Below, in pieces: positions 4,790 to 37,136 of a stretch of 63,029 bases of DNA (position 1 is its first letter; every line of letters begins with the position of its first letter). Made by a program: the position numbers and the translations under genes. The notes beneath the pieces are model-generated. The model was not told where the DNA came from. It did no database searches and saw only the letters and a list, made by a program, of their open reading frames with translations. Origin of the DNA: an uncultured Thermoplasmatales archaeon. GTDB taxonomy: Archaea; Thermoplasmatota; E2; DHVEG-1. The stretch covers positions 1-63,029 of the forward strand of contig CAYLLH010000112.1 in NCBI GenBank assembly GCA_964384785.1, read 5' to 3'.

Positions 4790-5737
4790 ATGAATCTATT
4801 TGTAACAACATTTCAATCAGTAGCAGTACTATTAGGAATAGGGCTAATTGGTTTTTTGATAATACAAAGAAAACTAATACCAGGTAGAATCCTAAGCCTG
4901 CTTTCACCTCTGGCTTTAGATATAGCTTTACCAAGTCTAATATTTGTAGATATACTCTTAGATTTTTCTCCAAAAACTAATCCAGATTGGTGGCAGCTAC
5001 CGCTCTGGTGGGCATTTTTCACAATCATTGCAGCAGGATTAATGTTTCTTTTTAGATATCTTTCAAAAAAAGAAACACGTAAAGAATTTGCTATAACCCT
5101 TTTTTATCAAAACGGGATATTTTTTCCATTGGCAATTCTATCTGGCATGTTTGGTGATAACTCTTATTACATAATAAGCCTATTTTTGTTTACAATTTTT
5201 TATCCTGCTTTTTTCTTCACAACATACCAGTTTTTTTATCCAAACAAAAAAACTGAAACAAAAATTGATTGGAGTAAAATTTTTCATCCTGTATTAATAG
5301 TAACTTTGATAGCGATAATTCTTGTATATCTGGGTTTAAAAAACTTTGTTCCAGATACAGTAATCTCGATTTTTTCAATGATCGGGGCTATGACGATTCC
5401 TTTGTTGATGATAATTCTTGGTGGAAATATTTATGTTGATTACAAGAAACAAGGTAAACTAGAGATTTTTGAGTTAATAAAATTTGTATCGGTTAAAAAC
5501 TTTGTTTTTCCACTTATATTTATTGGAATAGTAATACTTTTAAAACCATATCTTAGCTACACTGTAGCATTGTTATTGGTTCTTCAAGCTGCAGTACCGC
5601 CGGTGACAGCAGTTCCTTTGGTTGTTGAACGTGCTGGTGGCAATAGAGGTATAGTGAGTCAGTTTATGGTGGTAAGTTTTGTTGTATCCTTGATTTCTAT
5701 TCCATTAATGGTTTATCTTTTCGGTATAAACTTTTAG
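4790..5737 (+). CDS. AEC (auxin-efflux-carrier) family permease
   Basis: 315 aa and about 10 TM helices. The N-terminus 'FQSVAVLLGIGLIGFLI' and the two-half topology are typical of AEC transporters. Confidence 0.7.
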   Translation: MNLFVTTFQSVAVLLGIGLIGFLIIQRKLIPGRILSLLSPLALDIALPSLIFVDILLDFSPKTNPDWWQLPLWWAFFTIIAAGLMFLFRYLSKKETRKEFAITLFYQNGIFFPLAILSGMFGDNSYYIISLFLFTIFYPAFFFTTYQFFYPNKKTETKIDWSKIFHPVLIVTLIAIILVYLGLKNFVPDTVISIFSMIGAMTIPLLMIILGGNIYVDYKKQGKLEIFELIKFVSVKNFVFPLIFIGIVILLKPYLSYTVALLLVLQAAVPPVTAVPLVVERAGGNRGIVSQFMVVSFVVSLISIPLMVYLFGINF

Positions 5738-5801
5738 GAAAAAAAGAAAAAAATTAAGATTGATTGAAATTAGATTTTTTTAAAATTAAGTTTTCTTTTT
5801 T

Positions 5802-6143
5802 TTATCTTTCACATGCTTTACAGAATTCTTTGAATTTTCCGTTTTCTCTTATGATTCTGCATATTCTGCATGTTTCTGGTTTTACTGACCCGTTTCCATT
5901 TTCTATTATTTTTCTTGCTGAGATCGTTATTTCTTCGGTTACTATTTCATCTATTATTTTTACTTTTATTTTTCCTCCTCTTTTTTTGGAGAGGTATTGG
6001 CATACTGCCGCTGGTGTTATTCCGAGTTTTTCTGCGGCTTCTTTTTGGTTTAAACCGAAGTCGTTGATCATACATGCTGCGATTTCTTTTCGGATTACGG
6101 GTAGTCCATTCCACATCATGTATTCGCAGGGTGTCCGTATCAT
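5802..6143 (-). CDS. Small HTH transcriptional regulator (COG2522-like) with C-terminal Cys4
   Basis: 113 aa. HTH 'LNQKEAAEKLGITPAAVCQYLSKKRG' and C-terminal 'CRICR...CKAC'. The overlapping + strand ORF 5764..6177 is low-complexity. Confidence 0.7.
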   Translation of the reverse strand: MIRTPCEYMMWNGLPVIRKEIAACMINDFGLNQKEAAEKLGITPAAVCQYLSKKRGGKIKVKIIDEIVTEEITISARKIIENGNGSVKPETCRICRIIRENGKFKEFCKACER

Positions 6144-8301: not shown

Positions 8302-9413
8302 ACCCAATCGATATAATTATCGCAGGCTTTGAAATGCTTCTTGAATATCTTTCAGCACATGTTCTAACATGTCTTATTCCAGCTTTTTTTATCGCAGGAG
8401 CAATCGCGGTTTTTGTATCTAAAAAAGGTATTTTGAAATATTTTGGTGCTCAAACAAAAAAATATATTTCCTATTCAGTTGCATCAGTTTCTGGTGCAAT
8501 ACTTGCCGTTTGTAGCTGCACGGTTCTACCATTATTTACCGGGATTTATAAACGCGGTGCAGGTATCGGTCCAGCATCAGCATTTCTTTTCTCAGGTCCA
8601 GCAATAAATGTTCTAGCAATTGTTCTAACCGCGCAAGTCCTTGGTTATGATATCGGTCTTGCAAGAGCCATTTCTGCTATTCTTATGGCTATTGTTATCG
8701 GCCTCTCAATGGCTTTTATCTTTAGAAAAGAAGAAACAGAGAAAAAGAACAAAGATAATAATATGTTTGTAACTCAAACAGGGGAAGAAGATAATAAACG
8801 CCCTATTTGGATTTCACTTTTGTTTTTTGTTTCTCTTGTATTAATTCTTGTTATTGGTGCAGCTAGTACCGAATATATACCTTGGGTTCCAAAACTAGCG
8901 ATTGTTTATATTTTAACATTGATTGTTTCGGGTCTTCTCATTTTTTATTATACTCGTGATGAAGTAAAAAACTGGGGTAGAGAAACCTGGAATCTTACAA
9001 AAAAAATATTTCCAATTCTTCTTGTTGGTGTTTTTATAGTTGGAATTATCGGCGGTGTTGCTGCATATTTTATCCCTGGTGCAGATCCAGCTAATGCAGT
9101 AGGTGTCGCAGTGGCACCATATATTGGCGGTAATGATATTTTTTCATGTTTCCTAGCATCAATTATTGGTGCTATTTTGTATATGCCCACACTTTTAGAG
9201 GTTGCCATTGTTGGTGATTTATTTGGTTATAGTGCAGGTATTATGGGTGGCGGTCCTGCTCTTGCACTTCTTCTTGCTGGTCCATCTTTGAGTCTTCCTA
9301 ATATGATTGTTATCACCAAGGTTATGGGTAAGAAAAAAGCATTGGTGTATTTTGCTTTAGTAATAATTGTTGCTACAATTGTTGGTTTTATTTACGGTAT
9401 GATTGCAGGATGA
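8298..9413 (+). CDS. DUF318/ArsP-type permease
   Basis: 371 aa and about 10 TM helices. Has the conserved 'AVCSCTVLPLF' segment typical of the PF03773-type predicted permeases found in ars operons. Confidence 0.7.
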   Translation: MNPIDIIIAGFEMLLEYLSAHVLTCLIPAFFIAGAIAVFVSKKGILKYFGAQTKKYISYSVASVSGAILAVCSCTVLPLFTGIYKRGAGIGPASAFLFSGPAINVLAIVLTAQVLGYDIGLARAISAILMAIVIGLSMAFIFRKEETEKKNKDNNMFVTQTGEEDNKRPIWISLLFFVSLVLILVIGAASTEYIPWVPKLAIVYILTLIVSGLLIFYYTRDEVKNWGRETWNLTKKIFPILLVGVFIVGIIGGVAAYFIPGADPANAVGVAVAPYIGGNDIFSCFLASIIGAILYMPTLLEVAIVGDLFGYSAGIMGGGPALALLLAGPSLSLPNMIVITKVMGKKKALVYFALVIIVATIVGFIYGMIAG

Positions 9414-18850: not shown

Positions 18851-20014
18851 ATGGATGAAAATTGCCCGATATGTGGGATGAAAGGAACCATAAAAGCACA
18901 TAACCATTATTTCTGCAGCAGGCACTGTATAGAAAAATACGAAAAAGAACACAACATCCCCAAAGAAAACGAATACTGCCCAAGCTGTCATGCAAAAAAA
19001 GCAGCACCATGGTACAAACAAAGACTAACAATAGTAACCATTTTTACAATTATAGTTGTAACTTTATCTTTTTTTATTGATCAACTAAACCCTTTTTTTC
19101 ATGCCTTCATGGATTATCTTTATTTAATCTGGTGGGCAATACTACTAGGATTCTTACTAGGTGGAGTTATAGATTATTTTATTCCCAGGGAATACATCAA
19201 AAAATATTTATCCCGTCATCAAAAAAGAACAATTTTTTACTCAATAGGCTTTGGGTTTTTGATGAGTGCTTGTTCACATGGAATACTAGCCATAGCAATA
19301 GAGCTCTATAAAAAAGGAGCAAGTACCTCATCCGTGGTAGCATTCTTGATGGCTTCACCCTGGGCAAACCTACCAATAACTTTTCTTTTGTTTGGTTTTT
19401 TTGGACTAAAAGCAATATATATCATAGTTTCAGCACTACTAATAGCAACCACTACAGGTCTTATCTTTCAAGCACTTGAAAGACATGGAATGGTAGAATG
19501 TAAAAGCTGTCAGATGGGAGAAGATACACCAGTACTTATGGATTTCTCAATCAGGGAAGATATCAAAAAAAGATGGAAAAACTATCAGTTCAACTTTAAA
19601 AACAACTATCAAGCATTAGTAGGAACCTTAAAGGGTTCATGGTCTCTAACCAAAATGGTACTCTGGTGGCTAATAATAGGGATGCTAATGGCAGCATTCG
19701 CCCGAGCATATATCCCAACAAATCTATTTCAACAATACATGGGACCAACACTACTAGGATTAGCTATAACACTACTATTTGCAACAATAATAGAAGTATG
19801 CTCTGAGGGAAGCGCACCACTAGCTTTTGAAATATTTAACAAAACCGGAGCATTTGGAAACAGTTATGTTTTCTTAACTTCTGGGGTAATAACAGATGTG
19901 ACTGAGTTAGGATTGATATGGCATAACATTGGAAAAAAAGCAGCAATATGGTTACCAATAATAACAGTCCCTCAAGCACTTATAATAGGACTTCTAATGA
20001 ATATATTTCTATAA
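18851..20014 (+). CDS. YHS/TRASH-like Cys4 domain fused to a DUF318/ArsP-type permease
   Basis: N-terminal 'CPICGMKGTIKAHNHYFCSRHC' followed by about 9 TM helices ('MSACSHGILA'). Paralogous by eye to 8298..9413. Confidence 0.7.
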   Translation: MDENCPICGMKGTIKAHNHYFCSRHCIEKYEKEHNIPKENEYCPSCHAKKAAPWYKQRLTIVTIFTIIVVTLSFFIDQLNPFFHAFMDYLYLIWWAILLGFLLGGVIDYFIPREYIKKYLSRHQKRTIFYSIGFGFLMSACSHGILAIAIELYKKGASTSSVVAFLMASPWANLPITFLLFGFFGLKAIYIIVSALLIATTTGLIFQALERHGMVECKSCQMGEDTPVLMDFSIREDIKKRWKNYQFNFKNNYQALVGTLKGSWSLTKMVLWWLIIGMLMAAFARAYIPTNLFQQYMGPTLLGLAITLLFATIIEVCSEGSAPLAFEIFNKTGAFGNSYVFLTSGVITDVTELGLIWHNIGKKAAIWLPIITVPQALIIGLLMNIFL

Positions 20015-21139
20015 AATTCTATAATTATTCCAACCCACTCTTTCAATTAAATTATTTTTCTTCCAGCATCTAATAGCTTTATTAGCTTGTGAAGATGTTC
20101 TACCAAAATCTCTTATATCTTGATAACAAAAATTCTTATTTTTCATTTTTAATTTATTAAAAATTTCTTTATTTATGTTCATACTTTTCCTAATTAAAGG
20201 ATAATGAGAAGGGTTTATTTTTTTACAAATTTCAATAAACTCTTTTTCTTTAGCCCAAAGTCCAGCGATAAGACCATACTCTCTTTTTGCTTCTTTTAAG
20301 TAATCCAATATTATTGGAAAATTATAGTTATAAATTGTAATATCATCCTTATCATTAGTAGGATCAGAATGATCAAAATTTAAGCTATCAAGCAAAATTT
20401 TAAATCCAGTTCTAAATCCCTCCTTTTTTTGAGAAACTGTTAAAGTTGTGTCTTTAAAATGTCCTTCATCAAATATAAATTGGAAAAAAACCTGCATTTT
20501 ATATTCATAAGAAAGTTTAGAGACTGCCTTGAAAAATTCTATAGAATAAAAATCTTTTATTCCAATATTTAATGATTTACAAGTTAATCTAACTAAATGA
20601 GTAGGTATACTAATATAAAACACATTACCTATTTTAGATTTTAATCTACAAGATATTGAATCATTTTTTGTGATTTTTTTTAATAATTTTTCCATATATC
20701 TACTATTATTTCCCTTTTGATACCACTCGGCATTTATCCCATTTTTTTTGGTATTAATAAAAAAACTTCCATCACCGTGTATTGTAACAGATCTGAGAGT
20801 CAATGGCTCTAAGAAAAATGGGAAATGAATTTTATACATATTAGCTTGCCCTGATCCGTAATGAGTAATTTCTTTTTCTAAACCTTTTCGTTTAACACCA
20901 AGAGAATCTACAATACTTATTAAGTGAGGAATTGAATGAGCTCTTTTTTTATTTTTAGAAGTATATATTGAATAAATTGTTTCCCTGTCAAAATTAAGAT
21001 CTCGGGATAGTTTTCTTACACCATATTTTTTAATCTTAATTTTTAATTTTTCACGAATTTCTTTATTAAGTCGTACATAACCTTGGACATCCCATACATG
21101 TACTTTCTTAGGAATCTTATAATCATTACACATAATCAA
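20009..21139 (-). CDS. Hypothetical protein with two LAGLIDADG-like motifs and HTH-like termini (tentative)
   Basis: 376 aa. 'LRSVTIHGDGSF' and 'VFFQFIFDEGHF' are about 100 aa apart, as in double-motif LAGLIDADG enzymes. 'GVRKLSRDLNFDRETIYSIY' is HTH-like. Confidence 0.35.
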   Translation of the reverse strand: MIMCNDYKIPKKVHVWDVQGYVRLNKEIREKLKIKIKKYGVRKLSRDLNFDRETIYSIYTSKNKKRAHSIPHLISIVDSLGVKRKGLEKEITHYGSGQANMYKIHFPFFLEPLTLRSVTIHGDGSFFINTKKNGINAEWYQKGNNSRYMEKLLKKITKNDSISCRLKSKIGNVFYISIPTHLVRLTCKSLNIGIKDFYSIEFFKAVSKLSYEYKMQVFFQFIFDEGHFKDTTLTVSQKKEGFRTGFKILLDSLNFDHSDPTNDKDDITIYNYNFPIILDYLKEAKREYGLIAGLWAKEKEFIEICKKINPSHYPLIRKSMNINKEIFNKLKMKNKNFCYQDIRDFGRTSSQANKAIRCWKKNNLIERVGWNNYRIL

Positions 21140-21183: not shown

Positions 21184-21223
21184 ATTGAAAGTATTCTGAG
21201 ATGAAGCCTTTTTTACTTTCAAT
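21184..21223. promoter_or_regulatory. Perfect 10-bp inverted repeat ATTGAAAGTA-N20-TACTTTCAAT upstream of the RecA-like/PolB cassette
   Basis: Arms at 21184-21193 and 21214-21223, lying 77 nt upstream of ATG 21300 in the divergent intergenic region. Confidence 0.3.
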
Positions 21224-21299
21224 GACGTCCCCGTTTTATCTTTTTAAAAGATGACATACATGTAAGCTTTCCAAAAAAAACTTTTTTTGGGGGAATTTT

Positions 21300-22046
21300 A
21301 TGAGAAAAACTAAGCTTGCATTGGATGTCGTCGAAAAACCTGATTTTCAGGTTGCAAAAGATATGTTGAAACCAGATATAATAGTGAAATCTGGTATTAA
21401 AGAAATAGATAAACTAATTGGTGGTTTTAAAACAGAAACTGTGACCTATATCGATGGAGACAGCAGTTTTATTTCTAATATTCCCAATCAGCTTTGTGTT
21501 AATACTTTCAGGACTTTTCATAGTGACACGATTTATATTGATGGTGGGATGTGTGCTGATCCTTACAAGATTGCTTGTTATGCTCGATGTATGGAGTTAG
21601 ATCAAAAAAAGACTTTGAAACATGTTCATATAAGCCGTGCTTTTACAGTATATCAACTCTCTACTATTATTCAGAACATGTTAGAACAAGCCATAAGGCA
21701 GTACAATCCTCGTACTTTGATTATTGGTAGTTTTCCTAGTTTTTATCTTGATTCGGATGTGGATGAAAAAGAAGCACAGATTCTTCTACGTTTGAATCTT
21801 CATAAAATCCATGAATTAACTGTTAAATATGGTCTTATCACTGTTTTTACAAATTTTGAAAAAAAACTTTTGTCTAGTAAACGTAACATCCGAGGTATTC
21901 TTTACAATGATGTTGATGAAGTTGTTTTGTTAAAAGAGCATGATTTATCAACTAAAGTCAGGCTTTTAAACAAAAAAAAGCAGACTGTGATTCTTCATCT
22001 ACTACGTGGTCAGATGCGTCTTCAAGATTATGGTATGGTGATATAG
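21300..22046 (+). CDS. RadB/RecA-fold protein with degenerate Walker A and B motifs
   Basis: 248 aa. 'IKEIDKLIGGFKTETVTYIDGDSSFISN' aligns with RadB 'lD.lLgGG...g.it.iyG..GsGKT', but GxxGxGKT is replaced by GDSSFISN. 'TLIIGSFPSFY' replaces the hhhhDS Walker B. 'IYIDGGMCADPYKI' is like RadB 'yIDtEg.f.peR'. Confidence 0.55.
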   Translation: MRKTKLALDVVEKPDFQVAKDMLKPDIIVKSGIKEIDKLIGGFKTETVTYIDGDSSFISNIPNQLCVNTFRTFHSDTIYIDGGMCADPYKIACYARCMELDQKKTLKHVHISRAFTVYQLSTIIQNMLEQAIRQYNPRTLIIGSFPSFYLDSDVDEKEAQILLRLNLHKIHELTVKYGLITVFTNFEKKLLSSKRNIRGILYNDVDEVVLLKEHDLSTKVRLLNKKKQTVILHLLRGQMRLQDYGMVI

Positions 22047-22049
22047 TCT

Positions 22050-22304
22050 ATGGGTCGTACTGTTCCTACTTTTAGAAACATTGTTGAAAGTTTTGGCTGG
22101 GAGTGGAATGATTTCAAACGTGCTCTTAGAGAGATGGATCGTGAGGCTTTTGATGAACTTTTGAATCATGCTCGTCGTCATGCATCTGCTGGGAGTAATA
22201 TGAGTAATCCTAACCCGTTTGAACCAGTGGTTATGAGCATTCTGGTTGAACATGAAAAAACTATAAGAAAACTAAGAAAAGATGTTAACGGGAAACATTC
22301 TTGA
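22050..22304 (+). CDS. Small helical protein of unknown function, translationally coupled to PolB
   Basis: 84 aa. It starts 3 nt after the RecA-like gene and overlaps the polymerase start by 23 nt. 'FKRALREMDREAFDELLNHARRHASA'. Confidence 0.5.
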   Translation: MGRTVPTFRNIVESFGWEWNDFKRALREMDREAFDELLNHARRHASAGSNMSNPNPFEPVVMSILVEHEKTIRKLRKDVNGKHS

Positions 22305-24555
22305 TTGTTGTCCAGACTATAAGGAAAACGTGATGGTTACATGGATTACAGATAATGGTAAACCACATAAAATAAAGAGTTTTTACAAGCCTAGTTTTTT
22401 TGTTTATGCAAATCGGGATGAACTTTTAACGCTTGTATCTATTCTTAGAGATAAAACTGAAGTTGAAAATCTTGATTTTTGTTTTAAAAAAATAAACTTG
22501 GGTTTTGATAAAAAAAAACTTGTTCTAAAGGTTACACCAAAAAAACTATGTTTTTTTAGAAAACTAGCTGAAAAAATTGATTATTGGGGTGGTTTTTGCA
22601 GATATCAACTTTTTGATGTGGATCTACGTATGTCGTCTAGATTTCTTCAGGATATGGGTGTTTTTTGTAATGGTTTTGTTAGATGGGATGGAAAAAAATT
22701 TTTATTAGATGACAAAAAGCAATGGGCTGTTGATTATAATAAACCAGAGTATCATAGTCAGGTTTTTGAAATATTCTCAAAAAAACAAAGTAAAATAACA
22801 TCTTTTGAAAAACCCATAAAATCGATAAAAATAGGGAATAATGTTGTTAGTGAACGTTGTGAAAAGGAAACTATTTTGTTTGCAATAAAACAGCTTAAAA
22901 AATCTGATCCTGATGTTTTATTTGTCCATAGGGGGGACAGTGTGGTTTTTCCTTATCTTTATCATCGTGCCCGGAAAAACAGTATTGAAAATCATTTGAT
23001 GCTTGGCCGTGATAAAAATTTTTTAAAACCAGTTAAACAGAGTAAATCCTATTTTAGTTATGGACAAATAGTGTATCGACCTGCTTTTTATACTTTGAAG
23101 GGACGAGCGCATCTTGACAGCTATAATTCGTTTATCTACGGTGAAAGTGGTCTGCAGGGTTTGGTTGATATGTCTCGTTGTTCTAATATTCCTCTTCAGA
23201 TTTTGTCTCGTGTTGGTCCGGGTACTGCGATTAGTCAAATACAGGTTAACCATGCAAGAGAGAAAGGTTATCTTATTCCATGGAAAAAAAATATTCCTGA
23301 GGGTTGGAAGTCTGCTTTGGATCTTTTAAAATCTGATCGTGGTGGTTTGATTCTTGATCCAGTTGTGGGTTTACATGAGGATGTTGTGGAGTTTGATTTT
23401 GCATCATTGTATCCAAATATTATGGTTAATTACAATATCAGCCCTGAGACTATGTTCTGCAGCTGCTGCCGTTCTAATCCAAGTATTGTGGTTCCTCAGC
23501 TGGGTTATCATATTTGTAGTCGTAAAACAGGTCTTTTGCCTGAGGTTTTAAAACCTGTTTTGCACCGTCGTTTTTATTATAAGGCTCGTTCTAAAAACCA
23601 GAAATATGACACAGAGCTTTACAAAGAGTTGCAGCAGGCGTGGAAATGGGTTCTTTTGGTATGTTTCGGTTATACTGGTTACAGAAACGCCAGGTATGGT
23701 CGTATAGAATGCTACGAGAGCATCACAGCATTCAGTAGGGAAATACTTTTGAAGGCTTTTGAATGCGTTGAAAACACAGGATACACGGTTTTACATGGAA
23801 TAATTGACTCATTGTGGGTTAAACCAAAAAAAGACTGTAAAAACCCAGCGTTTTTATCACGTTTAATTAGCAACACGACAGGTGTTCGGATGGATGTAGA
23901 AGGACACTACAAATGGATAGTGTTCCTTCCTAACAAAAACACAGAGGTTGGTGCTTTGAATAGATACTATGGAATGTTTGATACTGGTGAACTAAAAGTT
24001 CGTGGTGTTGAACTACGTCAAAAAAACTCTCCGGTTTTTCTTAAAAAAATGCAAGAAGAAATACTCAATGTTTTCACCAAAGCAGATAACAAAAAAGAAT
24101 TCCTTAATTTGATTCCAGAAGCCTTAGAGGTTGTAAAAAATTATGCTAAAAAAATAATCAAAGAAGAAGTAGAACCTGAAAAACTGTTAATTAAAACCTG
24201 TGTATCAAAAAATGTAACAGAATACAAAGTAAATAATTTTACTAAATGCGCGCTTTTACAACTTAGAAAAAAAGGTATTGAGCCAAATCCCGGTCAAAAT
24301 GTTTCTTATGTTGTATGCGATGAAAAAAACAAAAACATATCAAAAAGAATTTGTGTTTTAGAAAACCTTGAAGAGTTTGAATTTTTTGATACTGATTTTT
24401 ATCTACGTCAAACAGCTCAATACGCTGAAAGTATCCTACTTCCTTTTGGTTGCACCTCTGAAAAATTATATGATATGTTTCAAAAAATAAAAAATAGAGA
24501 GCGATATAATGTATCCATTTTACCTGGAGTTAGAACTCATCAAACCAGTTTCTGA
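22282..24555 (+). CDS. Family-B DNA polymerase, divergent (PolB2-like): exonuclease motifs lost, motif C variant
   Basis: 757 aa. Comparisons are to Pfu PolB from memory.
- N-terminus: 'ILDCCPDY' vs 'ILDVDYI'.
- 'RFLQDMGV' vs 'RYLIDKG'.
- ExoI: 'FEIFS' vs 'FDIET'.
- ExoII: 'GDSVVFPYL' vs 'GDSFDFPYL'.
- Motif A is intact: 'DFASLYPNIM'.
- Motif B: 'KWVLLVCFGYTGY' vs 'KLLANSFYGYYGY'.
- Motif C: 'HGIIDS' (23794-23811) vs 'YIDTDG'. Confidence 0.85.
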   Translation: MLTGNILDCCPDYKENVMVTWITDNGKPHKIKSFYKPSFFVYANRDELLTLVSILRDKTEVENLDFCFKKINLGFDKKKLVLKVTPKKLCFFRKLAEKIDYWGGFCRYQLFDVDLRMSSRFLQDMGVFCNGFVRWDGKKFLLDDKKQWAVDYNKPEYHSQVFEIFSKKQSKITSFEKPIKSIKIGNNVVSERCEKETILFAIKQLKKSDPDVLFVHRGDSVVFPYLYHRARKNSIENHLMLGRDKNFLKPVKQSKSYFSYGQIVYRPAFYTLKGRAHLDSYNSFIYGESGLQGLVDMSRCSNIPLQILSRVGPGTAISQIQVNHAREKGYLIPWKKNIPEGWKSALDLLKSDRGGLILDPVVGLHEDVVEFDFASLYPNIMVNYNISPETMFCSCCRSNPSIVVPQLGYHICSRKTGLLPEVLKPVLHRRFYYKARSKNQKYDTELYKELQQAWKWVLLVCFGYTGYRNARYGRIECYESITAFSREILLKAFECVENTGYTVLHGIIDSLWVKPKKDCKNPAFLSRLISNTTGVRMDVEGHYKWIVFLPNKNTEVGALNRYYGMFDTGELKVRGVELRQKNSPVFLKKMQEEILNVFTKADNKKEFLNLIPEALEVVKNYAKKIIKEEVEPEKLLIKTCVSKNVTEYKVNNFTKCALLQLRKKGIEPNPGQNVSYVVCDEKNKNISKRICVLENLEEFEFFDTDFYLRQTAQYAESILLPFGCTSEKLYDMFQKIKNRERYNVSILPGVRTHQTSF

Positions 24556-24943
24556 TTTTTTAAAGAATCAGGATTACAAGGTTTATCATGAAATAAAAAT
24601 AGGATTTTGCAGAGCAGATTTGGTGGGTTTTAAAAAAAATAAAACAGTTGCAGTTGAGCTTAAACTAACTGATTGGAAAAAAGCAATAGTTCAAGCAAAA
24701 AACTACCAACTGGGTGCAGACTATGTATACTTAGCTTTTCCACTCAAAAAATCTTTTAATGTTCTAAAAAAAGTTGAACATATTCTAAAAAAGGAAGGTA
24801 TTGGTTTTTTGGTTGTAGAAGAAGAAAAATGTAATGTTAGAAAAATATTAGATGCGAAAGTTTCTGAGCGAAAAATATGTAGAATTACTCAAAAGGAAAT
24901 TAAAAAAAATCGTAGAACAAGTTTTCAAAAAAGAAGTTTTTGA
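24509..24943 (+). CDS. PD-(D/E)xK nuclease-fold protein (tentative)
   Basis: 144 aa. It overlaps the polymerase 3' end by 47 nt. 'CRADLVGF...VAVELK...QAKNY' gives a D...ExK...Q arrangement. The C-terminal tail is basic. Confidence 0.5.
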   Translation: MYPFYLELELIKPVSDFLKNQDYKVYHEIKIGFCRADLVGFKKNKTVAVELKLTDWKKAIVQAKNYQLGADYVYLAFPLKKSFNVLKKVEHILKKEGIGFLVVEEEKCNVRKILDAKVSERKICRITQKEIKKNRRTSFQKRSF

Positions 24944-24986: not shown

Positions 24987-25457
24987 ATGGTTAATTTGTT
25001 GTCAAAAGAAGAAATTATTTTCATAAATGAAGTTTCTCTAAAATTAACAGATGAAGAAGATAAATTTTATTTAGAATATCCTGATGATCTAGATTTTTTA
25101 ATAGATTTAGTAAAAAAAGATTTTAAGGATGATTTTTACAAATCAGCCCTTTGGTACTGTATTTCGATTATAGTTTTACATCCTTTTAAAAATGGTAATC
25201 ATCGTACTTCTATTTTAGCAGCTGAGCATTTTTTGTTAAAGAATAACTTTCAGTCTTTTACTGATGATGAAAAGGATACTTGGTTAGAAAAATATAGGAT
25301 AGAATACGAAAAAGAATATGAATTAGAAAGAGATTTTTTTAGGATAGCTTGTATAGAAAATAGAGATAAACAAAAAGAAGAAATAAAAAATATAATGATT
25401 TCAGAGTATGGAAAAACTATAAAGCGATGGCTTAAAAAAAATTATAAAACTAAATAA
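24987..25457 (+). CDS. Fic/Doc-family protein (Doc-like motif variant)
   Basis: 156 aa. 'HPFKNGNHRTS' compared with the Doc 'HxFx(D/N)(A/G)NKR' and Fic 'HPFx(D/E)GNGRxxR' motifs. Confidence 0.7.
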   Translation: MVNLLSKEEIIFINEVSLKLTDEEDKFYLEYPDDLDFLIDLVKKDFKDDFYKSALWYCISIIVLHPFKNGNHRTSILAAEHFLLKNNFQSFTDDEKDTWLEKYRIEYEKEYELERDFFRIACIENRDKQKEEIKNIMISEYGKTIKRWLKKNYKTK

Positions 25458-30693: not shown

Positions 30694-32301
30694 ATGGCGA
30701 TAAAAATGAAAAAAAATAATACATTAATACTCGGAGCTATTCTAATAGTAATAATTTTGATTCTATCTGGTACTTTATTATATATAAATTTTAGTGAATC
30801 AGATGAAAAAAAGAAAGATAAAAATGGTGAAGAAATCGATGATCGAATTAGTCCTCTTACCAATCAAGCAATTTTTTTAGAAATCCATAGAATTCGTAAA
30901 AAAGGTATAATCGATCATATGTATAATTCTGGGAATAATATATTTGATGTATCCCCAACTACTTCAAAAATTAAAGAAGTATTTCAAATACTTGATGGAA
31001 TTAGGCCTGGAAAAGGATGGGATAAGAAACCTCAGTTTAGTTATAATGTTGTTTTTGATGAATTCGAATGGCAAGGACGACCTGTTTATAAAAACTGGGA
31101 TACAGGTTATATGAATCAAGAAATTTTTAGAAATGTTGAAGAAGAAACATCTGAGACAACAATATCTTTTCAGATAATAGAAAAAATTCAAACTAAACAA
31201 TTCCTAAGAAAAAATACTGTTGATAAAGAAATGGATGGTTTCCGTGTGACATATGATTATAGAACTGGTAGGTGGTCTGGTGCTGATTCTTTTAATGATA
31301 GTGATGGATATGGTCACTATAATGGTTCAAATTATGAGGTATGGTTTACCATCCGTCAAACGTCAGCTGATGGTGATGACATTCCTTATTGGACTGAGGT
31401 AAATGTACTCGGTACGGATCCAACTGTTGATGATTCTAAACTTGATCCTGATAATGATGGTATTGATACTGAATGGGAATGGAAATGGGGATATGATCCT
31501 ATGGTATGGGATAATCATAGTGTTCTTGACCCTGATCTTGATGGTTTACAAAACAGTGAAGAATATTTTATGAGAGAATGGTTAGCAAATCCATTTCATA
31601 AAGAAATTTATTTAGAGGCAGATTACATGGAACAGACTCCAAAAAAACCATTGAACAAAGATGGTTATGATGGTTGGAAACATGTTTTTTATTTTGAATC
31701 ACAACAAATGATAATGGAAAGATTCAATGAGCATGGTATCACAGTTCATATTGATGATGGAAGAATGGGTGAGGGCGGAGATCTTTTTCCATTTGGACGG
31801 GGAAATCAAGCATATAATCAGGAAGCAGGCCTTGTAGCTGGTTTTTATGATAATGATTTTCCGGATGAAAGAAAAGGAATATTTAGATATATTGTAATAG
31901 CATATGGTGGCGGTTGGTGTCACCCTCAGGATTCTAATCATTACTATGATTGTATGTGCGTACCTCATAACAAAAATTTCTTCAAAAAACAGCTTAATAT
32001 GGCAATAACTGACAGGACAAAAAGGATAGGGCAAGCTATACAGATTTTACATGAAATGGGGCATTCACTAGGGATGCTTTCAGAGTTTGGTGGGGTAGAT
32101 AATGCTTTATCACGTTCAGAAGATCCTGATAATTATCCTTGGCTTGACTATGTAAGTGTTATGAACTACGATTATTTCAGACAAAGATACTTTGATTACT
32201 CTGATGGTTCTAATGGAGAATATGATCGCGATGGCTGGGCGACTATTGATCTGACTTTCTTCCAGACATCTTCTGAGTATATGGAGGGAGTTGGATCATA
32301 A
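30694..32301 (+). CDS. Membrane-anchored zincin-like metalloprotease with Asp-rich calcium-binding-type repeats
   Basis: 535 aa. N-terminal anchor, 'DPDNDGIDTEWE' and 'DPDLDGLQNSEE' (thrombospondin-type-3-like), and HExxH 'ILHEMGHSLG' (HEMGH = 32050-32064). Confidence 0.65.
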   Translation: MAIKMKKNNTLILGAILIVIILILSGTLLYINFSESDEKKKDKNGEEIDDRISPLTNQAIFLEIHRIRKKGIIDHMYNSGNNIFDVSPTTSKIKEVFQILDGIRPGKGWDKKPQFSYNVVFDEFEWQGRPVYKNWDTGYMNQEIFRNVEEETSETTISFQIIEKIQTKQFLRKNTVDKEMDGFRVTYDYRTGRWSGADSFNDSDGYGHYNGSNYEVWFTIRQTSADGDDIPYWTEVNVLGTDPTVDDSKLDPDNDGIDTEWEWKWGYDPMVWDNHSVLDPDLDGLQNSEEYFMREWLANPFHKEIYLEADYMEQTPKKPLNKDGYDGWKHVFYFESQQMIMERFNEHGITVHIDDGRMGEGGDLFPFGRGNQAYNQEAGLVAGFYDNDFPDERKGIFRYIVIAYGGGWCHPQDSNHYYDCMCVPHNKNFFKKQLNMAITDRTKRIGQAIQILHEMGHSLGMLSEFGGVDNALSRSEDPDNYPWLDYVSVMNYDYFRQRYFDYSDGSNGEYDRDGWATIDLTFFQTSSEYMEGVGS

Positions 32302-32316
32302 AAACAATTTTTTTTG

Positions 32317-32350
32317 TTTGAGGAATCATGGTCTATAAAACTTAAATATA
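32317..32350 (+). promoter_or_regulatory. Secretome promoter module, copy 2 (orphan, no ORF behind it)
   Basis: 'TGAGGAATCATGGTCTATAAAACTTAAATAT'. TGAGGA at 32319, exactly 200 bp before copy 3. Confidence 0.55.
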
Positions 32351-32408
32351 AAACAAACAAATAGAGGAATTAGAGCAAATATCTATATCGATCTCTAGGA
32401 AAATGTAT

Positions 32409-32460
32409 GGGGGGGGTGAATTCATGAGTCCCCACCCCTCTTATTTTTTCTTTTTTTATT
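32409..32460 (+). terminator. G/C hairpin plus T-tract
   Basis: GGGGTG (32413-18) pairs with CACCCC (32333+100 = 32433-38) across a 14-nt loop containing GAATTC. It is followed by 'TTATTTTTTCTTTTTTTATTTT'. Confidence 0.35.
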
Positions 32461-32516
32461 TTGAAATTACAAAAATATTAGTAAATTATTTGATAATAAA
32501 AATAAAAATAATTATG

Positions 32517-32550
32517 CTTGAGGAATATCGGTCTATAAACCTTAAATAAT
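32517..32550 (+). promoter_or_regulatory. Secretome promoter module, copy 3
   Basis: 'TGAGGAATATCGGTCTATAAACCTTAAATAA'. TGAGGA at 32519. ATG 32602 is downstream, with GGGGGAT 8 nt before it. Confidence 0.6.
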
Positions 32551-32601
32551 GATATAATTAACATATATTTATAAAACTAATAATTATGGGGGATAAAAAC
32601 A

Positions 32602-35600
32602 ATGAAAACTTATTTTCAAAAATTTAAAAAATTATCAATCACATTTATAATATTAGTATCATTAATAACAACATCCACTTTAGCATTTACAACTGTTGCA
32701 AAAAACCCAAAAGAAAATGAGCAAGGATTCAATAAAGGCTCCTCATATCTACCTGTGAACACTGTTAAAAAAACTACATTAGTCAACTACAATGAAAACA
32801 GTTACCTCGATGACTATGCTTATTTTGCATCAATACCAACCGCTGTTTTTAAAAATAACAACCAACTCTATTCCCATCCTCTTTTATTCTATCAAGATTC
32901 TGTCAAGGATGAAAATAAAATTTTAACCTCTAATGGACGAACTGGTCTAAATTATTTCATGGAAGATTGGGAGAGTGCAAATAATGATGTTTTTGATGAG
33001 ATAACTACAATTAACATACCGACTGGTAAAATAAATCAATGGAATGCAGAAACATACAACACTATCAATAGTGATTCACCTGAAGAAATAGCTGAAAAAA
33101 TAGCTTTACATGACTGGTCCTACTCAGATGAAGCAGTTTTAGCAAACATTAACACAAATTATAATGATAAATCAAAAACTGAAATATCGAATATGATTAA
33201 ATCCTCGATTCAACCTTGTGATGTTAAAAAAATTTCAAAAATGAATTTTGTTCTAAAAAACAGATTAAAACCAGAATTCAATATTTTTCAAATAGATAAT
33301 GATTATAAACATGTTAAAGCAGATGTATATTGGGATATCTTAATTGATTCAAAAAAAATTGGTATGATATCATCTGCAGATCCTGCTGGAAATCCTGATG
33401 TACAATTTTATTCTCCAAAAAATAATGATTGGATACAAACATCTGCAACCTGTTCAGAAACCAAAGGACCATATGGCCATAAATATGCCAATGCTCATAT
33501 TAATGAACCTGGAAAATGGAAAATTAGTATATCAGATATACCCACCCAGGAATTATCATCAAATATTAAACAAAGATTTTCAAATTTTTTACAAAAAAAT
33601 AAGTTAACATATTATGTTGACATCACTATGTATCCTGGTGTAGATATAGAAATACCAGATGTTCCAGAATATAAAAGTCAAAATGCATTTTTTAAGTTAA
33701 AATGGGATGACCCAAAAAAACAATTAGGTTTTTCAATTATTGGACCAAATAAGGAATCTATTTTTACTAAACTTGATGAAACCAAAACTGGAGTTTTAGA
33801 GATAAAACTAAATGAACTACCTGAGATTTTGGATGATAAAAAATACAGTTTATCTGTTTTTAGTAAAAATGATGTCACCGAAGAAATAAGTTTCGAGGTT
33901 GAATATGGATGGGAAACAAAACCTGGTAAAAACCGGGATTCTCTAACCTCTGCCTCAGAGGGAAGTATCTTAGCTAGTCAACTAAATGCACCATTGTTGT
34001 ATGCAAAAAATGGTAAAATATCTGAATCAACAGAAAAAGTACTCTTTAAACTCGGAGTTAAAAAAATCTATCTTGTTGATATCAATAAAAATATAGATGT
34101 TACTGCAAAATATGCTCTACAGGAAAACTTCAATGTTAAATATTATAGTTCCTTAAAAAAAATCTATGATAAAATCCGAGATTTTTCTAAAAATAATGAT
34201 GTGATTTTTTCAACAATTGAATCATGGATTGATTGGGATCCTGAAACCTTGAAACCTAACTATAAAGAATCTTATGGTTTGTCTCTTGGACCTGCAGCTT
34301 TTATCGCCGCACATCACGGAAGCCCTGTTTTAATAATTGAAAATCATCCCGAGCTTTCTTCTGCAGCATTGTATCATAACCAACTCTGGAATCGTTATTC
34401 AACAGATCGAAAATTTCACAGACCTTCAGATCTTGAAATGTATCTGACTGGAACTGCGATCTATGAATTCCTTAAAGAATATGGGTTTGACAAAAATGAT
34501 GAAAAAGAAACAATAATCACTGTGGCTGGACAATATAATATTGGTCCATCCTGGGATCGTATCTTTCCAGGTGTAGCTAACTCTGGGCGATTTTTTGGGA
34601 ATCCTGTTGATATAAGTTATTGGGTTTCAAGAAATATATTCTACCCAATATTAGTTTTTGAAAATCCTGGTGTAGAAGATGAGATTGAGTTAATCAATGG
34701 AAGTAGTAGTTACCGGGATACAGGTCTTAAACTTGGTAATATCAAAAACTTTGTTTTAACAAAAGATGCTTTGATTCAAGGTGGTATTAATTATTTTAGA
34801 AAAACTTCAGATAGTAAAATTGAAGTCTATAAAAACCCGGTTTTGTGTTCATTTTTAGTATATCAGCATAGGTTCAATGAAAGAGCCAGTAAATATTACG
34901 GGGAAAAGTATGTTTGTGCTGATGGAACTGTACCAGGTGAAACAGTTACTGACTATCCAATTGATTCAGATATAATGAAAGTATTTACAGGTTCTGATGA
35001 GATGGTTTTTCCAGATATAACTGAATCTGAAATAATTCCTTTATACCTAAAAAAAGGAGGATTTGATTCTGTGTATTCCACCTCTAAAGAAGCTGTGGTT
35101 GAAAATCTTAATCAAGGTGTTCTTCTGTGGATTCATGGTTCTCATGGAGATGAAAAAGATGGTGGAACGACATTATTCTGGAATCCTCAAGAGGGATTTG
35201 AAAATCGTGATAACTATTTTGTAGCAAAATTACTGTATTTTCATAAATCTTATTTAGATTTACAAAATAATAAAATTGTTAATCTTTTGTCTACCTTTAT
35301 TCCTCAGATAAAAGGGACTTTCAAACTCAGTGAACCAAAAATAGGGGTTTTCCAAGATGATAATCCTTGGAGGGCTTATGAGTGGTATATGGGTTCAACA
35401 GATGAACCAGATACTATGGCGGTTGATATTAAAGGAATGTTGCCTTATACCTCCTTATCTTCTTCTTTGTTTCCTTCTTTAAATATGCCCTATGTCGCGT
35501 CCTATGAGCCATTCAAGGTTTTTCTTAATAATATCATTCCTTTTACCGATCCATTCAATGTTGAAAGTAATTATGATGGAGTAGTTGGCTCCTTTGCACA

Positions 35601-36204
35601 ATCAAAATTTCAATATAATAAATATAGTTCTTTTGATATTGAAAAAAATCTTGAAAATTTGCATTCAACAGGTTTTATCACAAGTATATGTAACACTGGA
35701 GGAAGTTATCTTCATCTTATGTTAGTACGCCATGGTTCTGTTTTCCAGATACAAAATCCTTGGCCTTCTTCTATATATAGCTCTGTATGGATGCAATCAA
35801 TACCTCGAGATATTGTTTCAGGGGCATCTTTAGGTGAAGCATATGCAAATGGTCTTGAACATGTTGGAAGTATGATTCTATCAAAAAATAATAAAAATCA
35901 GTGGTGGTGGGATTCTGGTCAAAATCTAATATATTATGGTGATCCAAACCTGCGTGTTTATGTTCCAGATTCAAATTATGATGATTCTAATACTTGGGAA
36001 AAACCTGTTTTTTTAAAATATTCTGAGTCTAATGTTGATGGACATACTGTATTTGGAGCAGAAAAATATCCACATGAAAGACAACCTGTGTCGTTATTTG
36101 AAAGATATTTTTATTTGATTCTTTTTGTTTCTTTGATTACTTTGGTTTTAATCTTAATTTTTTCTTATGATAAAGTTTTTAATAGAGGTGAATCAAAAAA
36201 ATGA
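32602..36204 (+). CDS. Large (1200 aa) surface protein: signal peptide, C-terminal TM anchor, possible gingipain/C25-like C-terminal domain
   Basis: Signal 'ITFIILVSLITTSTLAFT' and C-terminal 'YFYLILFVSLITLVLILIFSY' plus a basic tail. Candidate catalytic contexts are 'VLLWIHGSHGD' (about 35131-35150) and 'ITSICNTGG' (about 35680-35700), with 'LIYYGDPNLRVY'. Three 'A..xxAPLL/SPVL' modules are reminiscent of CWB2 repeats. Confidence 0.7.
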   Translation: MKTYFQKFKKLSITFIILVSLITTSTLAFTTVAKNPKENEQGFNKGSSYLPVNTVKKTTLVNYNENSYLDDYAYFASIPTAVFKNNNQLYSHPLLFYQDSVKDENKILTSNGRTGLNYFMEDWESANNDVFDEITTINIPTGKINQWNAETYNTINSDSPEEIAEKIALHDWSYSDEAVLANINTNYNDKSKTEISNMIKSSIQPCDVKKISKMNFVLKNRLKPEFNIFQIDNDYKHVKADVYWDILIDSKKIGMISSADPAGNPDVQFYSPKNNDWIQTSATCSETKGPYGHKYANAHINEPGKWKISISDIPTQELSSNIKQRFSNFLQKNKLTYYVDITMYPGVDIEIPDVPEYKSQNAFFKLKWDDPKKQLGFSIIGPNKESIFTKLDETKTGVLEIKLNELPEILDDKKYSLSVFSKNDVTEEISFEVEYGWETKPGKNRDSLTSASEGSILASQLNAPLLYAKNGKISESTEKVLFKLGVKKIYLVDINKNIDVTAKYALQENFNVKYYSSLKKIYDKIRDFSKNNDVIFSTIESWIDWDPETLKPNYKESYGLSLGPAAFIAAHHGSPVLIIENHPELSSAALYHNQLWNRYSTDRKFHRPSDLEMYLTGTAIYEFLKEYGFDKNDEKETIITVAGQYNIGPSWDRIFPGVANSGRFFGNPVDISYWVSRNIFYPILVFENPGVEDEIELINGSSSYRDTGLKLGNIKNFVLTKDALIQGGINYFRKTSDSKIEVYKNPVLCSFLVYQHRFNERASKYYGEKYVCADGTVPGETVTDYPIDSDIMKVFTGSDEMVFPDITESEIIPLYLKKGGFDSVYSTSKEAVVENLNQGVLLWIHGSHGDEKDGGTTLFWNPQEGFENRDNYFVAKLLYFHKSYLDLQNNKIVNLLSTFIPQIKGTFKLSEPKIGVFQDDNPWRAYEWYMGSTDEPDTMAVDIKGMLPYTSLSSSLFPSLNMPYVASYEPFKVFLNNIIPFTDPFNVESNYDGVVGSFAQSKFQYNKYSSFDIEKNLENLHSTGFITSICNTGGSYLHLMLVRHGSVFQIQNPWPSSIYSSVWMQSIPRDIVSGASLGEAYANGLEHVGSMILSKNNKNQWWWDSGQNLIYYGDPNLRVYVPDSNYDDSNTWEKPVFLKYSESNVDGHTVFGAEKYPHERQPVSLFERYFYLILFVSLITLVLILIFSYDKVFNRGESKK

Positions 36205-37136
36205 ATAGAAGAATATTTGCAATAATTTTTAGTTTACTTTTTCTAATATCTACAACTGTTAATGCATTAAGTTTGAAAACTAATAACCATAATTTAGATG
36301 ATGTATCTAAAGATTTTTCATCTTCTGATTCTTCCAAAGTTATTTTAGCACAGAATCAGAGTACTGTATCAGAATCACTTTCAAACTCAACATATGGTTT
36401 TACAGGTCCTAGTAAAATTAATTCTACAGGTAAAGGACTCATTTTAATAGTTCCTTTACAACTAGCTAAATTTGACATTCCTGTTCCTAACATTCAGTAT
36501 AATTTCTTTCCTATAAGAGTAAATTTATTTTTAATCTATTGTGTCTATAATGATTCTAATGCTTCAACAAAAATAACAAAAATGAATGGCGAAGTTAAAT
36601 GGATAAATGGCAGTCATTCATTGTTACTCGGAATGTTTTCACTTCCAACAATAAACTTTTTAAGGTTTTTATTAATAGATGGATTAATAGATGGAGCTAG
36701 ACCATTACAAATTCGTTTTGCTAATTTAATTGGTTTGCCACCTATAGCTTTATTATTAACAAAATTACGAGATATGTTTTTGGTTGAACCTTTAATGAAT
36801 ATCTCTGATTCACTGTTTAATTTTTTAAGAGAGATGAAAGGTATTCCACCTAATTATAAACCTATCAATCCTGTATTTGATTTACCCTGGATTAATAATA
36901 TCTGGCAAATAAGAGTAAATATATACATCTATTGGCAGCTTTTTTTGAATTTAGTTGGAATTCCTGTTAAGCCAACACTAATTGGAGTTATAATGCCAAT
37001 CAACCAGATAGGATATACACCTTTTGTAATATGGAATAAAGATCCTATGTTTGGTGATGGAGTTTCCAAAATTCAAGATACTGCTCTCATGTTTTTGAGT
37101 AAATTAGGTTTAGAGCCTCATCCAGATTATAAATAA
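36201..37136 (+). CDS. Secreted hypothetical protein, translationally coupled to the 1200-aa gene
   Basis: 311 aa. ATGA overlap. Signal 'FAIIFSLLFLISTTVNALS'. Confidence 0.6.
   Translation: MNRRIFAIIFSLLFLISTTVNALSLKTNNHNLDDVSKDFSSSDSSKVILAQNQSTVSESLSNSTYGFTGPSKINSTGKGLILIVPLQLAKFDIPVPNIQYNFFPIRVNLFLIYCVYNDSNASTKITKMNGEVKWINGSHSLLLGMFSLPTINFLRFLLIDGLIDGARPLQIRFANLIGLPPIALLLTKLRDMFLVEPLMNISDSLFNFLREMKGIPPNYKPINPVFDLPWINNIWQIRVNIYIYWQLFLNLVGIPVKPTLIGVIMPINQIGYTPFVIWNKDPMFGDGVSKIQDTALMFLSKLGLEPHPDYK

Follow-up and report, generated by a model that had tools for sequence, protein, structure and literature searches.

The contig CAYLLH010000112.1 of an uncultured Thermoplasmatales archaeon, analysed over positions 1 to 63,029 (63,029 nucleotides, nt; referred to here as the window), carries a compact four-gene cassette at positions 21,184 to 24,943. 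Considered as a whole, the comparative and structure-prediction data suggest that this cassette is a chromosomal translesion ("mutasome") operon of the archaeal family B polymerase PolB2, belonging to an uncultured member of the Thermoplasmatota that resembles Marine Benthic Group D (MBG-D), and that the operon has been extended by a fourth gene. We place the probability of this reading at about three in four. The first three genes are, on the strength of their motifs and order, almost certainly the published iRadA-PPB2-PolB2 trio. The fourth encodes a predicted PD-(D/E)xK nuclease, and the pattern of its inheritance indicates that it is probably linked in function to PolB2. The four genes are as follows:

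21300..22046, forward strand: iRadA (gene 1), 248 amino acids; RadA-core family match with Walker A/B substitutions
22050..22304, forward strand: PPB2 (gene 2; arCOG07300 / DUF8156), 84 amino acids; orthologue with PF26485, MGRT start
22282..24555, forward strand: PolB2 (gene 3; Dpo2-type family B polymerase), 757 amino acids; Pfam and NCBIfam matches, motif alignments
24509..24943, forward strand: gene 4, PD-(D/E)xK-fold protein, 144 amino acids; predicted structure, invariant residues, synteny

Genes 1 and 2 are separated by a 3-nt gap, genes 2 and 3 overlap by 23 nt, and genes 3 and 4 overlap by 47 nt. These four open reading frames (ORFs), with their spacing and all coordinates, reproduce those of a preliminary description made from the sequence of this stretch. 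That description also proposed translational coupling throughout. For PolB2 and gene 4 such coupling is less certain than for genes 1-2 and 2-3, because a 47-nt overlap is long for classical termination-reinitiation.

The three-gene core is already known and adds nothing new for specialists. An "inactivated" PolB2 associated with arCOG07300 and an inactivated RadA was reported by Makarova et al. 2014 (PMC4104785). A later study, Timinskas et al. 2025 (PMC11791011), introduced the names PPB2 and iRadA for the two partners, listed 1,823 operons and, by modelling, proposed a PolB2-iRadA-(PPB2)3 heteropentamer as the mutasome. That a degenerate recombinase is packed together with a degenerate polymerase, regarded as unusual in the preliminary description, had thus been described in 2013/2014 (PMC4104785) and modelled in 2025 (PMC11791011). 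Sulfolobus Dpo2, whose motif C is I-I-D like that of the window polymerase, is an active damage-induced extender from lesions and mismatches (summarised in PMC11791011), and is needed for targeted mutagenesis (literature summarised in PMC11791011 and PMC8764526). The order iRadA-PPB2-PolB2 is that of the commonest published operon group, 1a (Timinskas et al. 2025), and the window trio has this order and is tightly packed. Features shared with the published mutasome operon include: loss of the iRadA ATPase site; the MGRT arm of PPB2; the I-I-D motif, dead exonuclease and D(K/R) loop of PolB2; a putative PIP-like (PCNA-interacting-protein-like) box at the iRadA C-terminus; and SRAP as a frequent neighbour in relatives. 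The window differs from the published operon in having a fourth gene that overlaps the PolB2 3' end.

For comparison across genomes, a PolB2 alignment was used to scan GTDB species, each represented by a single genome. This gave 60 PolB2 loci (given L numbers below) from Thermoplasmatota, Bathyarchaeia and bacterial Sumerlaeota, with identities to the window running from 90% to ~32%, plus one weak 22% partial match. Gene content was called by scoring six-frame ORFs with family hidden Markov models, and a neighbour-joining tree was built. The closest named relatives are "Thermoplasmatales archaeon" metagenome-assembled genomes and single-cell genomes such as SCGC AB-539-C06 and SG8-52, which we take to be Marine Benthic Group D. 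Among the relatives are also the complete MBG-D-like chromosomes CP070836.1, CP070724.1 and CP070712.1.

By alignment, gene 1 is a RadA ATPase core from which both ATPase motifs have been lost. Its match to Rad51/RadA models is weak (Pfam 6e-7; NCBIfam RadA 8.5e-10, far under cut-off). In a HMMER alignment with Pyrococcus furiosus RadA, the Walker A position reads GDSSFISN (residues 53-60, nt 21456-21479) in place of GEFGSGKT, and the Walker B position reads LIIGSFPS in place of LLIVDSLTS, an Asp-to-Gly replacement. This agrees with the earlier proposal of a RecA-fold protein without ATPase motifs. The match begins at residue 7 of the RadA core (a truncated construct) with 28 residues of the protein before it, which places iRadA without the N-terminal helix-hairpin-helix domain; the true RadA of L034, by contrast, keeps both this domain and GEFGSGKT. 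At the other end, the protein terminates in QMRLQDYGMVI, within which the PIP-like box QMRLQDYG (22011-22034) lies 3 residues from the C-terminus, and the pattern GQxxLxxFGMV is kept at this position across the clade. A C-terminal clamp-binding motif of the same kind has been reported for iRadA, including that of Thermoplasmata, and the published profile scored the equivalent M9B2D motif, QSHLEAFG, near zero (PMC11791011).

The identity of gene 2 follows from its N-terminus, MGRTVPTFR, which is the MGRT arm described in PMC11791011, with Arg3 and Arg9. The protein is 84% identical to the orthologue in L001, annotated PF26485/DUF8156, and matches Methanothrix PPB2 from the supplement of PMC11791011 at E 1e-7. 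In the orthologous quartet loci L001, L003 and L005, the trio is annotated Rad51, DUF8156 and DNA_pol_B.

Gene 3 encodes a family B polymerase (PF00136 at 3e-33). Aligned with P. abyssi PolB, it retains motif A (DFASLYPNIM, against DFRSLYPSII) and departs from the canonical sequence elsewhere: motif C is HGIIDS (23794-23811) against YIDTDG, so that the first Asp is gone and I-I-D stands for D-T-D; motif B has L-V-F in place of N-S-Y; and ExoII reads GDSVVFPYL against GDNF(D)FPYL, which replaces the catalytic Asp with Val. The ExoI string FEIFS is read from an alignment of PolB2 proteins only, in a region variable among them. The preliminary description had given this same account of the motifs, and had placed the polymerase in the archaeal PolB2 group. 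The group assignment is borne out by the motif C string, the loop motif and the operon partners, all of which match published PolB2. The string HGIIDSLWV is the same as in Thermoplasmata PolB2 rows of the published table (PMC11791011). The loop motif R-D-K lies within LGRDKN (residues 241-246, 23002-23019), aligned with other PolB2s, and corresponds to the D(K/R) motif that contacts PPB2 (PMC11791011). The protein is 53-54% identical to PolB2 of Thermoplasmata archaeon M11B2D (L032), a genome in the published operon table, and groups with published-set Thermoplasmata PolB2 in a neighbour-joining tree built without PolB1/PolB3 outgroups.

Three further observations concern the polymerase. The PolB2 orthologue of L005 (4774-7047) keeps D-I-E at ExoI (MDIEQ), where the window has FEIFS. 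On the complete Thermoplasmatales chromosome CP070712.1, assembled from a metagenome, the PolB2 match at L061 (6001-7128) ends after about residue 336, which may reflect a split, an interruption or decay of the gene; the same locus has intact iRadA and PPB2 and an intact promoter box. A conserved C-terminal tail of PolB2 (…SILPGVRTHQTSF) was considered as a docking peptide. This idea was dropped, as the overlapping invariant N-terminus of gene 4 explains the conservation more simply; the tail is absent in the basal subclade.

Gene 4 is the element that sets this operon apart. It has no Pfam or NCBIfam family match, and a profile search of the PDB returned a spurious match only, giving no sequence relative among solved structures. 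An AlphaFold2 model built with 25 homologues (predicted local distance difference test score, pLDDT, 88.5) has the canonical alpha-beta-beta-beta-alpha-beta core. In this model, D37 lies on strand 2 (E34-42), E50 and K52 are at the end of strand 3 (E45-51), and Q62 is on the next helix. D37, E50, K52 and Q62 are invariant over 55 diverse family members, and E7 and E28 are nearly so; E28, D37, E50-x-K52 and Q62 are the putative catalytic residues. Foldseek matches the model to the PD-(D/E)xK proteins SPO1766, XisH, AF2093, SfsA, AF1548 and YaeQ and to R2 endonuclease domains. The fold named in the preliminary description is upheld by these matches and by the model confidence. Gene 4 is thus modelled as a PD-(D/E)xK nuclease with an intact D...ExK signature, and metal-dependent activity is predicted.

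The closest structural counterparts, XisH, SPO1766/3dnx and AF2093, have its fold and its catalytic signature (Foldseek E 4e-5 to 6e-4, template-modelling scores, TM, 0.54-0.60). Unlike these small stand-alone PD-(D/E)xK proteins, to which it has no detectable sequence similarity, gene 4 adds a further beta-hairpin and ends in a helix that is basic. The basic, aromatic-ended C-terminus shows no canonical PIP-box pattern. An assignment as Hjc was rejected, the Foldseek match being weak (E 0.017, TM 0.32). In an exhaustive phmmer search, 584 cluster representatives reached E <= 1e-3, and gene 4 therefore belongs, on sequence grounds, to a sizeable unnamed family. A profile search with a diverse gene-4 alignment returned mostly members from the MBG-D clade, together with two further distant members with context. 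One distant homologue (L006 3053-3511, 38% identity) has as its neighbours a divergent XPD-like helicase (DEAD_2/Helicase_C_2) on one side and, downstream, a SprT-like protease, a setting that, judged by these neighbours, is another DNA-damage context for the family.

The link between gene 4 and PolB2 emerges from the related loci. Within one Thermoplasmatota (MBG-D-like) clade, defined by at least 50% PolB2 identity, gene 4 adjoins PolB2 in 23 of the 30 evaluable species-level loci, and this adjacency includes the basal split of the clade; among sampled loci outside the clade, none has gene 4 beside PolB2. The long contigs of L001, L003 and L005 have the order iRadA-PPB2-PolB2-gene 4 followed by SRAP, with the same 47-nt overlap, and their outer flanks are entirely different. 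In the split loci L026, L028, L037 and L065, about 3.4 kb of unrelated genes separate iRadA-PPB2 from PolB2, and PolB2 and gene 4 are still joined. The intervening genes encode a membrane protein, a PRC-barrel protein and an LPG_synthase_C-like protein in L026, L028 and L037, and are different in L065. In L031 the order is permuted to iRadA-PPB2-gene 4-PolB2 (gene 4 at 5501-5959). Across the loci, gene-4 identity to the window declines in step with that of PolB2 and iRadA, from 81% to 46%. As inferred from these comparisons, the pattern fits one early acquisition, vertical co-inheritance and few losses. Since the adjacency survives splitting and permutation, and since divergence tracks that of PolB2 and iRadA, it is hard to square with a passive passenger. 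Synteny of the quartet in other genomes was the test set beforehand for the cassette; it is found in many, and the claim stands.

The published neighbourhood survey scored Pfam families only (PMC11791011) and was blind to gene 4 for that reason, as gene 4 has no Pfam family. No nuclease partner of this kind is mentioned in PMC4104785 or PMC11791011, and gene 4 may be new as a member of the PolB2 operon.

That survey did report SRAP and DUF72 as enriched neighbours of PolB2 operons (Timinskas et al. 2025, PMC11791011). DUF72, which has a TIM-barrel fold and kinship to UV-damage endonuclease, is described as an accessory putative nuclease beside these operons (PMC11791011). Here, DUF72 (confirmed as PF01904) adjoins 12 PolB2 loci, none of which (0/12) has gene 4, and conversely none of the 23 gene 4-positive loci has DUF72:

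DUF72-bearing PolB2 loci: L019, L020, L021, L029, L030, L032, L040, L044, L050, L052, L058, L063

The subclade that lost gene 4 is the subclade with DUF72 directly upstream of iRadA. By an uncorrected hand calculation, the chance of finding no overlap is about 8e-4 under the hypergeometric distribution. The two genes are alike in being accessory putative nuclease genes linked to a PolB2 operon. They are unlike in fold, TIM barrel against PD-(D/E)xK, and in arrangement: DUF72 is usually upstream with its own promoter, whereas gene 4 is in the operon and overlaps PolB2. SRAP lies 3' of gene 4 in 13 gene 4-positive loci (11 distinct when the duplicate contigs L002 and L004 are set aside) and is absent from the window. 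In L001, a 299-amino-acid MCM/AAA-type protein (8479-9378) is encoded just 3' of SRAP, and likewise in L002.

Next, the region upstream of iRadA contains elements that recur across the related loci. The preliminary description had noted a perfect 10-bp inverted repeat, which is present at 21184-21223 as ATTGAAAGTA (21184-21193) and TACTTTCAAT (21214-21223) around a 20-nt spacer. A lone 10-bp repeat in DNA of 30% GC is weak evidence by itself, and its weight comes from conservation across loci. A conserved palindromic operator was rejected because only the right arm is conserved; the "palindrome" is better read, from the aligned sequences, as two divergently oriented copies of a box. The conserved arrangement upstream of iRadA consists of: the box AATA(C/G)TTTCA(A/G/C); 16-24 nt (~20); a TATA-like TTTTTAA(A); and, about 45 nt after the TATA-like element, a Shine-Dalgarno-like G-run and the ATG. 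The surrounding sequence is unalignable across loci. The window contains:

21212..21223, forward strand: damage-response-element-like box TTTACTTTCAAT; contains the right arm of the repeat, ~20 nt 5' of the TATA-like box
21186..21195, reverse strand: second, exact AATACTTTCA copy; overlaps the left arm of the repeat and faces a divergent 376-amino-acid gene
21194..21208, forward strand: degenerate copy TTCTGAGATGAAGCC of a second box, TTTGAGACAAAGCC; in the repeat spacer, more than 2 mismatches, tentative
21241..21249, forward strand: TATA-like box TTTTTAAAA; putative operon promoter, read from sequence
21289-21293, forward strand: Shine-Dalgarno-like GGGGG; read from sequence

AATA(C/G)TTTCA occurs at the same position 5' of iRadA in 32 of 51 loci, nearly all from the clade with at least 50% identity. 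An unbiased 8-mer count detected ATACTTTC in 29 of the 33 regions upstream of the operon, where 0.81 would be expected; CTTTTTAA and GGGAGGC are also enriched, at relative positions that agree between loci. The composite of box plus TATA element has 31 sites in 767 kb of related loci, about 24 of them directly upstream of iRadA. Over the window AATA(C/G)TTTCA is not over-represented (17 matches, 18.65 expected), and its significance is positional and cross-locus. In the more distant PolB2 loci the box is undetectable at up to one mismatch.

The box also accompanies gene 4 and the repair genes radA and uvrA. Most of the split loci have a separate AATAGTTTCA or AATACTTTCA box for the PolB2-gene 4 half, followed by a TATA-like box in L026, L028, L037 and L007. 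A variant, TATACTTTCA, is upstream of the genuine radA in L034 (2680-2720), and the box is upstream of uvrA in L148 (2700-2735). The second box, (AATAC)TTTGAGACAAAGCC, lies directly 5' of the damage-response-like box in L012 (1969), L013, L024 (3527), L025 (43), L045 (4918) and L051 (4917), and in the L034 radA promoter (2680). Its start resembles a tandem copy of the damage-response-like box, and inverted copies are found further upstream in L012 and L034.

In S. islandicus, the DNA-damage-responsive element has the consensus AATAGTTTCRGWDTACTCWS with the core ANTTTC, is bound by Orc1-2 and is required for damage induction; dpo2 is among the Orc1-2-dependent genes (PMC6061795). The box described here matches this consensus, AATAGTTTCRGWDTACTCWS, and in L005 and L013 it reads AATAGTTTCAGT. 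The two elements are alike in their first 10-12 bases, in their place in the PolB2-operon promoter, and in occurring also in radA and uvrA promoters. They are unlike in that the window box belongs to another phylum, the Thermoplasmatota, and lies about 20 nt 5' of the TATA element, with a regulator assigned by analogy. In the literature searched, the ANTTTC element is discussed for Sulfolobales only. From these sequence matches, the AATA(C/G)TTTCA box may mark a damage regulon outside the Sulfolobales.

Several observations weigh against the proposal that the cassette is a PolB2 mutasome operon with a fourth member. The host lineage is uncultured, and the roles of the proteins are drawn from homologues and sequence. 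The best NCBIfam model for PolB2, NF004416, gives 444.6 bits against a curated cut-off of 516. In its first two bases the operon-side box of the window departs from the clade consensus (TTTACTTTCA), and it lies 5' of the TATA box, as opposed to 23-55 bp 5' of the ATG in Sulfolobus. No Orc1/Cdc6 was found among the scanned window ORFs, a set that excludes about 24 smaller ORFs, and no search was aimed at an Orc1-2 orthologue. Few independent evolutionary events underlie the exclusivity of gene 4 and DUF72, which is for this reason suggestive only. Gene 4 is missing from 7 evaluable loci inside the clade and from all other PolB2 operons, and is therefore dispensable for mutasome function. Finally, 80 soil-metagenome loci with distant gene-4 relatives have no PolB2, iRadA, PPB2 or SRAP nearby. 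They represent a high-GC soil-archaeal branch of the family, with archaeal TBP present; neighbour calls in these loci are affected by shadow ORFs, and the absence of those four families and the presence of TBP are what was retained. Because of these 80 loci, the gene-4 family is not intrinsically tied to PolB2; it was recruited in this lineage.

The occurrence of the wider family without PolB2, the repeated loss of gene 4 within the clade, and the lack of any Pfam, PADLOC or solved-structure sequence match pointing to repair would all suit an independent small nuclease (restriction-like, selfish or housekeeping) carried passively behind PolB2, such that the module is genes 1-3 only. This explanation must however accommodate an adjacency that outlasts operon splitting, permuted order and full turnover of the outer flanks, a conserved coding-sequence overlap, and the apparent co-promotion of gene 4 with PolB2 in split operons. 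The divergence that tracks PolB2, the complementarity to DUF72, and the distant homologue between the XPD-like helicase and the SprT-like protease also argue against it, and we consider it unlikely. A different challenge concerns the polymerase itself. If it is catalytically dead, the complex would be structural or regulatory, for instance at stalled forks or origins, as proposed in 2014; this is the reading given in PMC4104785, and the replacement of the first motif C Asp, the motif B N/S and the exonuclease residues is consistent with it. Against this, Sulfolobus Dpo2 is active with the same I-I-D motif C (PMC11791011, PMC8764526), and the window PolB2 retains motif A and the second motif C Asp, which makes a dead polymerase improbable. 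Least probable is an origin of the cassette in a mobile element or its membership of an island for defence against viruses. The neighbouring Doc insertion, which is strain-specific and weakly matches the PADLOC candidate defence model PDC-S04, and a LAGLIDADG fold next door could be taken in its favour. No integrase, Cas1 or terminal repeats were seen, however, and the operon is inherited vertically while its housekeeping flanks differ between genomes; the LAGLIDADG-fold gene, moreover, is stably syntenic on chromosomes elsewhere. Since PADLOC gives nothing relevant for the four proteins, the flanks are variable housekeeping genes and GC is flat, the defence and mobile-element parts of the preliminary description are unsupported; its suggestion of a dedicated repair or translesion module, as distinct from a replicative polymerase, is retained.

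The genes on either side of the cassette are:

24987..25457, forward strand: Fic/Doc-family gene (Pfam Fic 1.6e-7, TIGR01550 4.7e-8); adjacent, not a module member
20009..21139, reverse strand: divergent 376-amino-acid gene, with a helix-turn-helix domain, double LAGLIDADG and winged helix (AlphaFold2/Foldseek); not a module member
L148 5001-6125 and L150 5001-5918: homologues of the 376-amino-acid gene

The 376-amino-acid protein has no family match in Pfam or NCBIfam. Its AlphaFold2 model (pLDDT 89) shows an N-terminal helix-turn-helix domain, a central double LAGLIDADG and a C-terminal winged helix. With Foldseek the model hits I-DmoI (E 1e-4) as well as WhiA, in keeping with a WhiA-like architecture; conserved residues of its two LAGLIDADG motifs are D123 and E225. 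Homologues are syntenic with an ArsP_1 permease and Ogg in genomes without PolB2 nearby. Among the related loci, the gene stands beside the PolB2 operon only in the window and in the 90%-identical L008. In the window, the minus-strand box is followed by TATATTTTTAT and then by the gene start at 21139; in L148 and L149 the homologue lies away from PolB2, yet AATAGTTTCAAT and a TATA box are upstream. The gene thus has a damage-response-like box in two different genomic contexts. Going by the predicted structure, the protein could be a domesticated homing endonuclease with a part in repair or regulation.

The Fic/Doc gene has the variant motif HPFKNGNHR. It is present in the window and absent from all 67 related loci, including L008, where gene 4 is directly followed by the acyl-CoA synthetase found at 25813 in the window. 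As the 90%-identical L008 is without it, Doc is, by comparison of the two loci, a recent, strain-specific insertion. Gene 4 and Doc are 43 nt apart with no oligo-T between them, and T-runs follow Doc; on that account Doc may be read through from the operon. No Phd-like antitoxin ORF is evident in the 43-nt gap between gene 4 and Doc, to which the search was confined. The folds of both flanking genes are as first described. Their use as hints to the nature of the module is not sustained, the one belonging to a separate Ogg-permease block and the other being absent in L008.

PADLOC returned no relevant match for genes 1-4; its 'HEase' match of PolB2 covers the polymerase sequence of an intein-type model. 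Beyond the immediate neighbours, the outer flanks of the operon are housekeeping genes that differ between genomes. The remainder of the window is ordinary chromosome with flat, unremarkable GC, and Rfam and tRNA scans of the whole window gave no match. Two other stretches of it stand out: three consecutive same-strand ORFs at 30694-37136 (535, 1200 and 311 amino acids) have no Pfam match at E <= 1e-5, and a 446-amino-acid protein at 58080-59420 has an MCM P-loop domain only, being too short for a full MCM.

If the cassette operates as a PolB2 mutasome operon, the pathway likely involves: induction of the operon by DNA damage; assembly of PolB2, iRadA and a PPB2 trimer into a heteropentamer; docking of the complex on PCNA through the iRadA tail; and extension of mismatched or lesion-opposed primer ends by the proofreading-deficient PolB2. 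Each of these steps is modelled on homologues. Induction would proceed via the AATA(C/G)TTTCA box 5' of the TATA element, bound, by analogy with Sulfolobus, by an Orc1-2-like regulator. The gene-4 nuclease would join this pathway, where its most likely task is to cleave or trim DNA that is damaged or structured at the site of stalling, and confidence in any particular substrate is low. In other PolB2 operons DUF72 may fill the role of gene 4, and in relatives SRAP, through abasic-site shielding, may complement it. A functional analogue is the E. coli Pol V mutasome (UmuD'2C-RecA), a translesion polymerase of several subunits that is induced by damage and recruits a member of the RecA family together with a small subunit inserting an N-terminal arm (PMC11791011). 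Pol V differs in having a Y-family polymerase, an active RecA, no dedicated nuclease gene and LexA regulation.

A bolder version of this proposal can be put forward only tentatively. Gene 4 would be a true fourth component of the mutasome, supplying nuclease activity in trans or cutting at the lesion; DUF72 would be its non-orthologous replacement; and the box would belong to an ancient Orc1-2-type archaeal damage regulon shared by Thermoproteota and Thermoplasmatota. In the literature searched, no earlier description was found of the fourth gene, of its mutual exclusion with DUF72 or of a promoter element shared across the two phyla.

Work on damage-induced mutagenic polymerases in archaea has centred on PolB2, and the composition of its holoenzyme is known from models only. 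A conserved, apparently co-regulated nuclease gene that is tied to PolB2 and exclusive with DUF72 suggests that the mutasome may need a nuclease partner. The box before the PolB2 operon, radA and uvrA in Thermoplasmatota raises the prospect that the only experimentally defined archaeal damage circuit may reach well beyond the Sulfolobales. If this is true, a shared Orc1-2-type regulon would be an ancient archaeal counterpart of the SOS system.

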